A stretch of DNA of 64,000 nt, taken from the NCBI RefSeq assembly GCF_003334255.1, contig NZ_QOWU01000009.1, one strand, 5' to 3'. Source of the DNA: Escherichia coli (GTDB taxonomy: Bacteria > Pseudomonadota > Gammaproteobacteria > Enterobacterales > Enterobacteriaceae). Shown here one piece after another: positions 1-174 of the stretch; the first letter of the stretch is position 1; every line of letters starts with the position of its first letter. The translations under genes were made by a program, and so were the position numbers. The notes under the pieces were generated by a model. That model was given only the letters and a program-made list of their open reading frames with translations, ran no database searches and was not told where the DNA came from.

Positions 1-174
1 ATAAGACGCGCAAGCGTCGCATCAGGCAGTCGGCACCGTTGCCGGATGCGGCGTAAACGCCTTATCCGGCCTACGGAGGGTGCGGGAATTTGTAGGCCTG
101 ATAAGACGCGCAAGCGTCGCATCAGGCATCTGGCACCGTTGCCGGATGCGGCGCGAGCGCCTTATCCGGCTTAC
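1..174. repeat. REP/BIME palindromic elements; ~100-bp unit present twice in tandem, first copy cut by window edge
   Basis: ataagacgcgcaagcgtcgcatcaggca at 1-28 and 101-128; gccggatgcggcg...ccttatccggc at 41-74 and 141-174; REP-type GCCGGATG / CATCCGGC palindromes. Confidence 0.8.

Follow-up and report, generated by a model that had tools for sequence, protein, structure and literature searches.

The direct repeat that opens the window (the whole 64,000-nucleotide stretch of Escherichia coli DNA analysed here) is the yjdM-proximal end of REP325; more specifically, positions 1-174 comprise the final 1.74 units of an array of six, which is cut by the window start. This element is already known, having been named, curated in Rfam and dissected experimentally, and it is a classical BIME-2. 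The most probable account, at roughly 80%, is that REP325 is a BIME-2 array whose length changes in register and which, being co-transcribed with yjdM, acts as an attenuator of yjdN and a stabiliser of yjdM.

The window-edge repeat as the tail of REP325

The initial annotation described positions 1-74 and 101-174 as near-identical copies of a REP-containing unit with a tandem period of 100 bp, and both a repeat search and TRF agree with this description. The pair 1-77 and 101-177 is the sole direct-repeat family within window positions 1-1000 (spacing 100, 90% identity), and it also ranks first in a self-comparison of the whole window, the check that the annotation had proposed. Between 1-74 and 101-174 there are 7 mismatches (about 90.5% identity), which are grouped in the short linker (29-31), the loop of the y REP (54, 55 and 57) and its foot (71). 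The REP copies match y and z2 sequences derived from the array with E values of 1e-15 to 1e-17 (blastn-short), and the REP head/tail pattern occurs at 9 places in the window against 0.005 expected in shuffles. The repeat at 1-177 is thus far above chance level.

The interpretation of this repeat as a two-copy duplication did not survive extension of the sequence, since the two copies are the tail of a six-unit array. TRF run on the window by itself does not list the repeat, the 1.74 copies present being under its threshold; in a K-12 record extended to the left (L001) it reports a period of 100, 5.8 copies, 96% matches and a score of 1074. The sequence to the left of window position 1 in K-12 reads as more 100-bp units, and the full array occupies 3806-4385 of that record. 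In MG1655 the spacer between yjdN and yjdM is 657 bp long, with window position 1 lying 188 bp from its end. The array falls wholly inside this spacer and is therefore extragenic. Open reading frames on the plus strand across the array (e.g. 46-444) were dismissed as mechanical, as they run antisense to yjdM and through repeats of non-triplet length. Some genomes have a 'hypothetical protein' annotated automatically across the REP325 array; this is almost certainly a spurious reading frame through the repeats.

In K-12, REP325 consists of six tandem 100-bp units and thus of 12 REP palindromes in which z2 and y alternate. Each unit contains, in order, a z2-type REP (GTAG foot, plus strand), a linker of 11-12 nt, an inverted y-type REP and a spacer of 17 nt. 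The features at the window edge are as follows.

1-28, plus strand: 3' part of a z2-type REP, unit 5 of the six in the array, matching z2 consensus positions 1-28 at 100%
29-39: S-type short linker between z2 and y, GTCGGCACCGT, holding the SNPs that tell units apart
40-74, minus strand: y-type REP, 100% to the y consensus, GTAG foot at 74-71 on the minus strand
75-91: inter-unit spacer GGAGGGTGCGGGAATTT, part of the 'U' motif of Qian 2015, locus-specific
92-128, plus strand: z2-type REP of unit 6, 100% to the z2 consensus, GTAG foot at 92-95
140-174, minus strand: variant y-type REP at the array edge, 90% to the y consensus, loop GCGCGAGCGC, degenerate foot GTAA rather than GTAG
175-188: gap of 14 nt from the REP foot to the yjdM stop codon
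189-524, minus strand: yjdM (phnA) coding sequence as annotated in MG1655 (stop codon at 189-191), its transcript running into the array

The GTAG foot and first bases of the z2 REP of unit 5 lie to the left of the window, the full copy being found at L001 4203-4239. The units of the K-12 array differ from one another by 0-3 SNPs, with the exception of the last (edge) unit. All internal REPs of the array possess the GTAG foot, while the two REPs at its edges lack it: GGCG stands in its place at the array's first z2, and GTAA at the last y. GTAG at the foot of the palindrome is required for binding and cleavage by TnpA-REP, and in lacking it the two outermost REPs of REP325 are unlike the BIME-2 class.

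Qian 2015 described REP325, which lies in the yjdM-yjdN spacer, as consisting of six Y-l-Z2 repeats of 77 bp with five spacers in between; transcription from the yjdM side yields naRNA1-6. The motif names Y and Z2 are from that study, which also stated that naRNA4 equals naRNA2 and called the five spacers identical. The array examined here is the same element at the same locus as the REP325/naRNA1-6 of Qian 2015, of Rfam (RF02564) and of the Harris 2026 preprint, with six 77-nt Y-linker-Z2 units and 23-nt spacers. It departs from that description in one respect, namely that one of the five 'identical' spacers carries a G-to-T SNP in MG1655. This is the third inter-unit spacer (L001 4088, left of the window), which reads GGATGG as against GGAGGG, and the SNP is a useful marker of unit history.

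The BIME-2 class of the Bachellier/Gilson nomenclature is defined, in the summary of Ton-Hoang et al. 2012, by z2 and y REPs, a short linker and tandem copies. REP325 displays inverse z2 and y REPs with a short linker, is tandem and extragenic, varies in copy number among strains, has tandem copies that are conserved within the locus, and is built of imperfect palindromes with an internal mismatch. With 12 REPs, the K-12 array is at the top of the size range of 1-12 reported for BIME-2. It is not of the BIME-1 or RIP-RIB type (z1 and y REPs with a long L linker containing an IHF site), its linkers being 11-12 nt long in contrast to the 35-36 nt of the three BIME-1-like pairs found elsewhere in the window.

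Copy number of the array among E. coli genomes

Insert sizes at the locus were measured in 60 records, sampled at even spacing from the 5,420 that matched a query made up of two unique 700-bp flanks only, so that the span in each record gives its insert size. In this sample the inserts fall on a strict 100-bp ladder, as listed here.

87-89 bp, 1 unit: 34 of 60 records
About 186 bp, 2 units: 5 of 60 records, O157:H7 included
386 bp, 4 units: 4 of 60 records
486 bp, 5 units: 4 of 60 records, E. coli B included
586 bp, 6 units: 9 of 60 records, K-12 and relatives
686 bp, 7 units: 1 of 60 records
786 bp, 8 units: 1 of 60 records
Irregular insert: 1 of 60 records
Partial match: 1 of 60 records

The 13 alleles whose sequences were read are arrays of 1, 2, 4, 5, 6, 7 or 8 units, always in 100-bp register. 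A 44-nt query spanning the junction between units finds exactly 5 places in MG1655 and 1 in O157:H7, which is the unit count minus one in each case, and the spacer GGAGGGTGCGGGAATTT is therefore specific to the REP325 locus. The junction is present in 2,173 of 5,426 complete genomes (40%), which thus carry at least two units, and about 60% carry one unit. The number of junctions per genome ranges from 1 to 10 with a median of four, implying 2-11 units; the values of 3 and 11 units come from junction counts, and all of these allele counts derive from public assemblies, some of which may hold collapsed or mis-assembled repeats. The suggestion in the initial annotation that REP copy number is a plausible strain marker is borne out by this genome comparison, in which one unit and at least two units divide the 5,426 genomes approximately 60% to 40%.

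That BIME-2 copy number varies among strains in general was stated earlier by Ton-Hoang et al. 2012. The sole and modest addition made here is the population-scale spectrum of REP325 alleles across 5,426 complete genomes; no such spectrum was found in the main texts of the literature searched. REP325 shares with VNTR/MLVA loci the possession of discrete length alleles at a fixed locus, changing in steps of whole 100-bp units, and is unlike the simple repeats of VNTR loci in that its unit is a structured derivative of a mobile element. A broad and unspecific literature query found no use of the yjdM-yjdN locus for MLVA/VNTR typing.

The composition of the arrays indicates where the length changes occur. 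In most of the 13 strains read the edge units are of the same type, UTI89, O157 and EC42405 differing in loop and/or foot at the unit next to yjdM, and it is the internal units that have been duplicated, deleted or recombined, in register. When the K-12 units are lettered a b c d e f, strain KFu015 has a b c d c d e f, E. coli B has a b d e f and Z1323 has a b (c/e) f, while ES4 contains a d/c hybrid unit. The expanded arrays of MLI023K2 (6 units) and WP8-S17 (4 units) stand on a different background of edge units, which implies that expansion has recurred. Genomes with flanks that are 99.9-100% identical possess 4, 5, 6 or 7 units. The laboratory lineages of K-12 and B are stable at 6 and 5 units, respectively.

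Unequal recombination in register, or slippage of replication between units, would be the route by which the array grows and shrinks, possibly with the help of TnpA-REP (RAYT). As judged from the array sequences, the length changes among strains fit recombination or slippage, and amplification driven by RAYT may also account for them, the two not being separated by these data. A related possibility, entertained here with some doubt, is that REP325 is a selfish or neutral repeat, that is, a locally amplified REP doublet (REPIN) kept by RAYT or by recombination, whose length drifts and whose effects on neighbouring genes are incidental. The inverted REP doublet structure (REPIN-like) is present in REP325, the K-12 RAYT gene lying outside the window, and a preprint gives REP325 as a REPIN predicted by RAREFAN and associated with RAYT. 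TnpA-REP cleaves and joins BIMEs in vitro, and models of amplification exist (Ton-Hoang et al. 2012). A copy number between 1 and about 11 that is not constant in genomes whose flanks are nearly or wholly identical, expansion on different edge-unit backgrounds, and a CRISPRi screen in which yjdM and yjdN had no fitness effect are all in keeping with such an element. However, REP325 and its sub-fragments are stable on plasmids, K-12 and B have kept their unit numbers in the laboratory, and deletion of REP325 alters both growth and the yjdM/yjdN ratio according to the Harris 2026 preprint.

Transcripts of the array and its probable role at the yjdM 3' end

The Rfam model naRNA4 (RF02564) has six full-length matches in the array, all on the minus strand and with scores of 95-111 bits against a gathering score of 59.5. 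These matches sit on the strand that is transcribed from yjdM. Units c and e of K-12 are identical over 77 nt, which fits the equality of naRNA4 and naRNA2 reported by Qian 2015 and places the start of the naRNA numbering at yjdM. With this numbering, inferred from the statement of Qian 2015 and the unit map, the window holds naRNA1, the first unit transcribed after yjdM, in full and most of naRNA2.

95-171, minus strand: naRNA1 by this numbering, complete 77-nt unit (y hairpin, linker, z2 hairpin), RF02564 at 95 bits, model positions 1-77 of 77
1-71, minus strand: naRNA2 by this numbering, 3' end cut by the window edge, RF02564 at 94 bits, model positions 1-71 of 77

On the minus strand, stable hairpins are predicted for single REPs, their folding energies spanning -21 to -23.5 kcal/mol and their z-scores -3.3 to -7, and an internal loop interrupts each stem. 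The y REP at 40-74 gives -23.5 kcal/mol (z = -4.9) and the z2 REP at 92-128 gives -21.4 kcal/mol (z = -7.0), while the unit at 95-171 folds into two local hairpins at -42.4 kcal/mol (z = -4.4). Long-range pairing between the two units appears when 1-195 is folded as a single RNA and was rejected as an artefact of truncation and of thermodynamic, non-co-transcriptional folding; unlike that fold, the single-unit folds consist of the two local hairpins of the Rfam model. A search of the yjdN-yjdM spacer and array for an intrinsic terminator (a stem followed by a T-run) found none, a result compatible with Rho-dependent attenuation.

The role of attenuator of yjdN and stabiliser of yjdM is the best-supported mechanism and has one preprint as its basis (Harris et al. 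2026). According to the literature, REP325 is co-transcribed with yjdM, and its stacked hairpins block 3'-to-5' decay of the yjdM mRNA and also attenuate read-through into yjdN, in a manner that is reported to be partly Rho-dependent and to need a long array. In the preprint, deletion of REP325 brings the ratio of yjdM to yjdN RNA down from about 35 to about 1, with yjdN rising about 10-fold and yjdM falling about 3-fold, and REP325 RNA is seen as a ladder of truncated species. Bicyclomycin raises read-through only with the full 12-hairpin array and not with fragments of 2 or 4 hairpins, and the stabilisation of yjdM is strongly context-dependent (about 3-fold at the native locus vs 160-fold on a plasmid). 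REP325 is absent from an in-vitro screen for Rho binding. This evidence for function comes from a single preprint that is not peer-reviewed and from one strain, and its senior author is common to Qian 2015, the study that it contradicts. Because about 60% of E. coli genomes have a single unit, a long array is dispensable for the operon.

REP325 is a model locus in a live dispute over the purpose of REP and BIME sequences, in which chromosome architecture through HU and naRNA4 is set against local control at gene 3' ends. The architectural reading holds that the units are processed to naRNA1-6, which together with HU bridge cruciform REP DNA chromosome-wide and so condense the nucleoid. Transcription of naRNA4 and its binding by HU were reported from RIP-chip and RNA-seq (Qian 2015), the Kd of the HU-naRNA4 complex is about 32 nM by EMSA, and Rfam curates naRNA4 as nucleoid-associated. 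Qian 2015 further reported co-purification of REP325 RNAs with HU and nucleoids, a nucleoid that decondenses on deletion of REP325 and is restored by naRNA4 supplied on a plasmid, and 3C contacts that depend on HU and REP325. In contrast, the Harris 2026 preprint reports a nucleoid area that is unchanged on deletion or overexpression of REP325, no stable ternary complex of HU, cruciform and naRNA4, and no enrichment of REP-REP contacts in Hi-C. The spectrum of alleles, with a single unit at the locus in about 60% of genomes, a 100-bp ladder and recurrent expansion, is likewise hard to square with the idea that the long array has an architectural role throughout the species, and argues against it. 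Chromosome-wide bridging is accordingly regarded here as quite improbable.

A role at the level of DNA topology is somewhat easier to entertain, yet still unlikely. Here REP325, as a BIME-2, would be a cluster of strong sites of gyrase binding and cleavage that are independent of transcription, serving as a sink for positive supercoils where the yjdM transcription unit ends or as a domain boundary. The array has six near-consensus y REPs, and the Topo-seq literature reports a strong excess of gyrase cleavage sites in BIME-2 elements, chiefly in their y REPs, with an increase when transcription is blocked. The same sources indicate that gyrase cleaves only a subset of BIME-2 elements, naming those at sucC-sucB and tldD-yhdP, and neither the gyrase Topo-seq text nor its searchable supplementary material mentions yjdM, yjdN or phnA. 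Gyrase cleavage also leaves the reciprocal shifts in RNA from yjdM and yjdN unexplained.

A translational brake appears very improbable. By this reading, which draws on the spacing in the sequence, a first REP less than 15 nt from the yjdM stop codon would stall terminating ribosomes and lower YjdM via trans-translation. The distance from stop codon to REP foot is 14 nt at yjdM, as it also is after proP, and a preprint lists REP325 among the REPs within a 15-nt limit, cited second-hand, that has been proposed for translational regulation. However, base pairing in the hairpin begins 17 nt from the yjdM stop codon, and on deletion of REP325 yjdM mRNA falls rather than rises. It is possible for gyrase sites, a selfish REPIN and a translational brake to coexist with the attenuator and stabiliser role, none of them being exclusive of it.

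If REP325 does attenuate yjdN and stabilise yjdM, the length of the allele would probably tune the ratio of yjdM to yjdN expression. A bolder proposal, put forward tentatively, is that the length polymorphism is a heritable and fast-mutating dial on the polarity of the operon. Were this true, transcription would continue into yjdN past a short allele, a long allele would attract Rho as well as insulating and stabilising yjdM, and natural strains would differ in their yjdM/yjdN ratio without any change in coding or promoter sequence. Since Rho-dependence is found only with the full array (preprint), the dial model is directly testable with natural alleles, and natural length variants are available for testing a length-dependent terminator and stabiliser.

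Other REP sites and neighbouring features of the window

Eleven REPs are found at five sites in the 64-kb window and nowhere else in it.

1-174: tail of REP325, two z2 and two y REPs, 3' of yjdM and before co-directional yjdN
5808-5834, plus strand: solitary z-like REP located 14 nt beyond the stop codon of proP, hairpin -20 kcal/mol, z = -5.7
18605-18700: REP pair between convergent melB and yjdF, z1-like REP at 18605-18629, 35-nt linker, y REP at 18666-18700
46987-47087: REP pair between convergent yjeI and yjeJ, z1-like REP, 36-nt linker, y REP
48288-48388: REP pair 3' of epmB and upstream of co-directional yjeJ, y REP, 36-nt linker, z1-like REP

REP searches of the window place all five intergenic sites where the initial annotation had them. 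Its observation that they lie at gene 3' ends applies to five of five on the gene map, the neighbouring genes being convergent or co-directional at every site and no site lying at a divergent promoter. It had also listed REP pairs after proP, melB and yjeI and between yjeJ and epmB; the last three are indeed pairs, and the site after proP is a single REP. The three pairs share the layout of BIME-1, that is, a single copy with a short z1-like REP, a linker of 35-36 nt and a y REP, and on this layout only they may be called BIME-1-like. The strict IHF consensus (WATCAANNNNTTR) is absent from all REP linkers in the window.

The pair at 48288-48388 is an inverted copy of that at 46987-47087, with 83% complementarity across 60 nt and 93% across 44 nt. 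Together these inverted pairs (46981-47095 and 48280-48394) bracket yjeJ (47156-48025), the 5' region of which is AT-rich (32-33% GC at 47900-48350). The yjeJ region is near-universal, with at least 80% of it covered in 5405 of 5426 genomes; in many genomes it is about 313 bp shorter, and it is the REP pairs that are assumed to be missing. In some strains an IS621 insertion (IS110 family, about 1.27 kb) is annotated in the interval from yjeJ to epmB; REP sequences are a reported target of IS621.

Window positions 1-1500 match E. coli K-12 genomes at 100% identity and adjoin yjdM (phnA) and crfC/rdcA. Against NC_000913.3 the window has five substitutions and one inserted C (7656, 11920, 14350, 19424, 33310 and 40082); it is of the K-12 lineage, as its sequence indicates, and is not the MG1655 reference itself. 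The inserted C is that at 19424, in the yjdF-fumB spacer, and annotation coordinates past this point are shifted by +1. A number of otherwise K-12-identical genomes carry IS1A or IS1B in the intergenic region between yjdM and crfC/rdcA (window approximately 525-925). An IS1 inside the REP array was considered and ruled out, as the IS1 sits between yjdM and crfC.

A full-length match to the Rfam family STnc630 (5837-6002, plus strand, 182 bits) begins 3 nt beyond the proP REP; the small gene pmrR and the basS 3' end both overlap it. The dispersed repeats of the window derive from paralogous genes and are unrelated to REPs, namely 12741-13179 vs 30973-31333 (adiA/cadA), 22216-22301 vs 40251-40336 (dcuB/dcuA) and 27713-27781 vs 56672-56740 (lysU/epmA). 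A 42-nt inverted repeat at 15544-15647, in the melR-melA control region, is likewise unrelated to REPs. A guanidine-II (mini-ykkC) riboswitch is found at 50602-50648 on the plus strand, upstream of gdx (sugE), as expected there.
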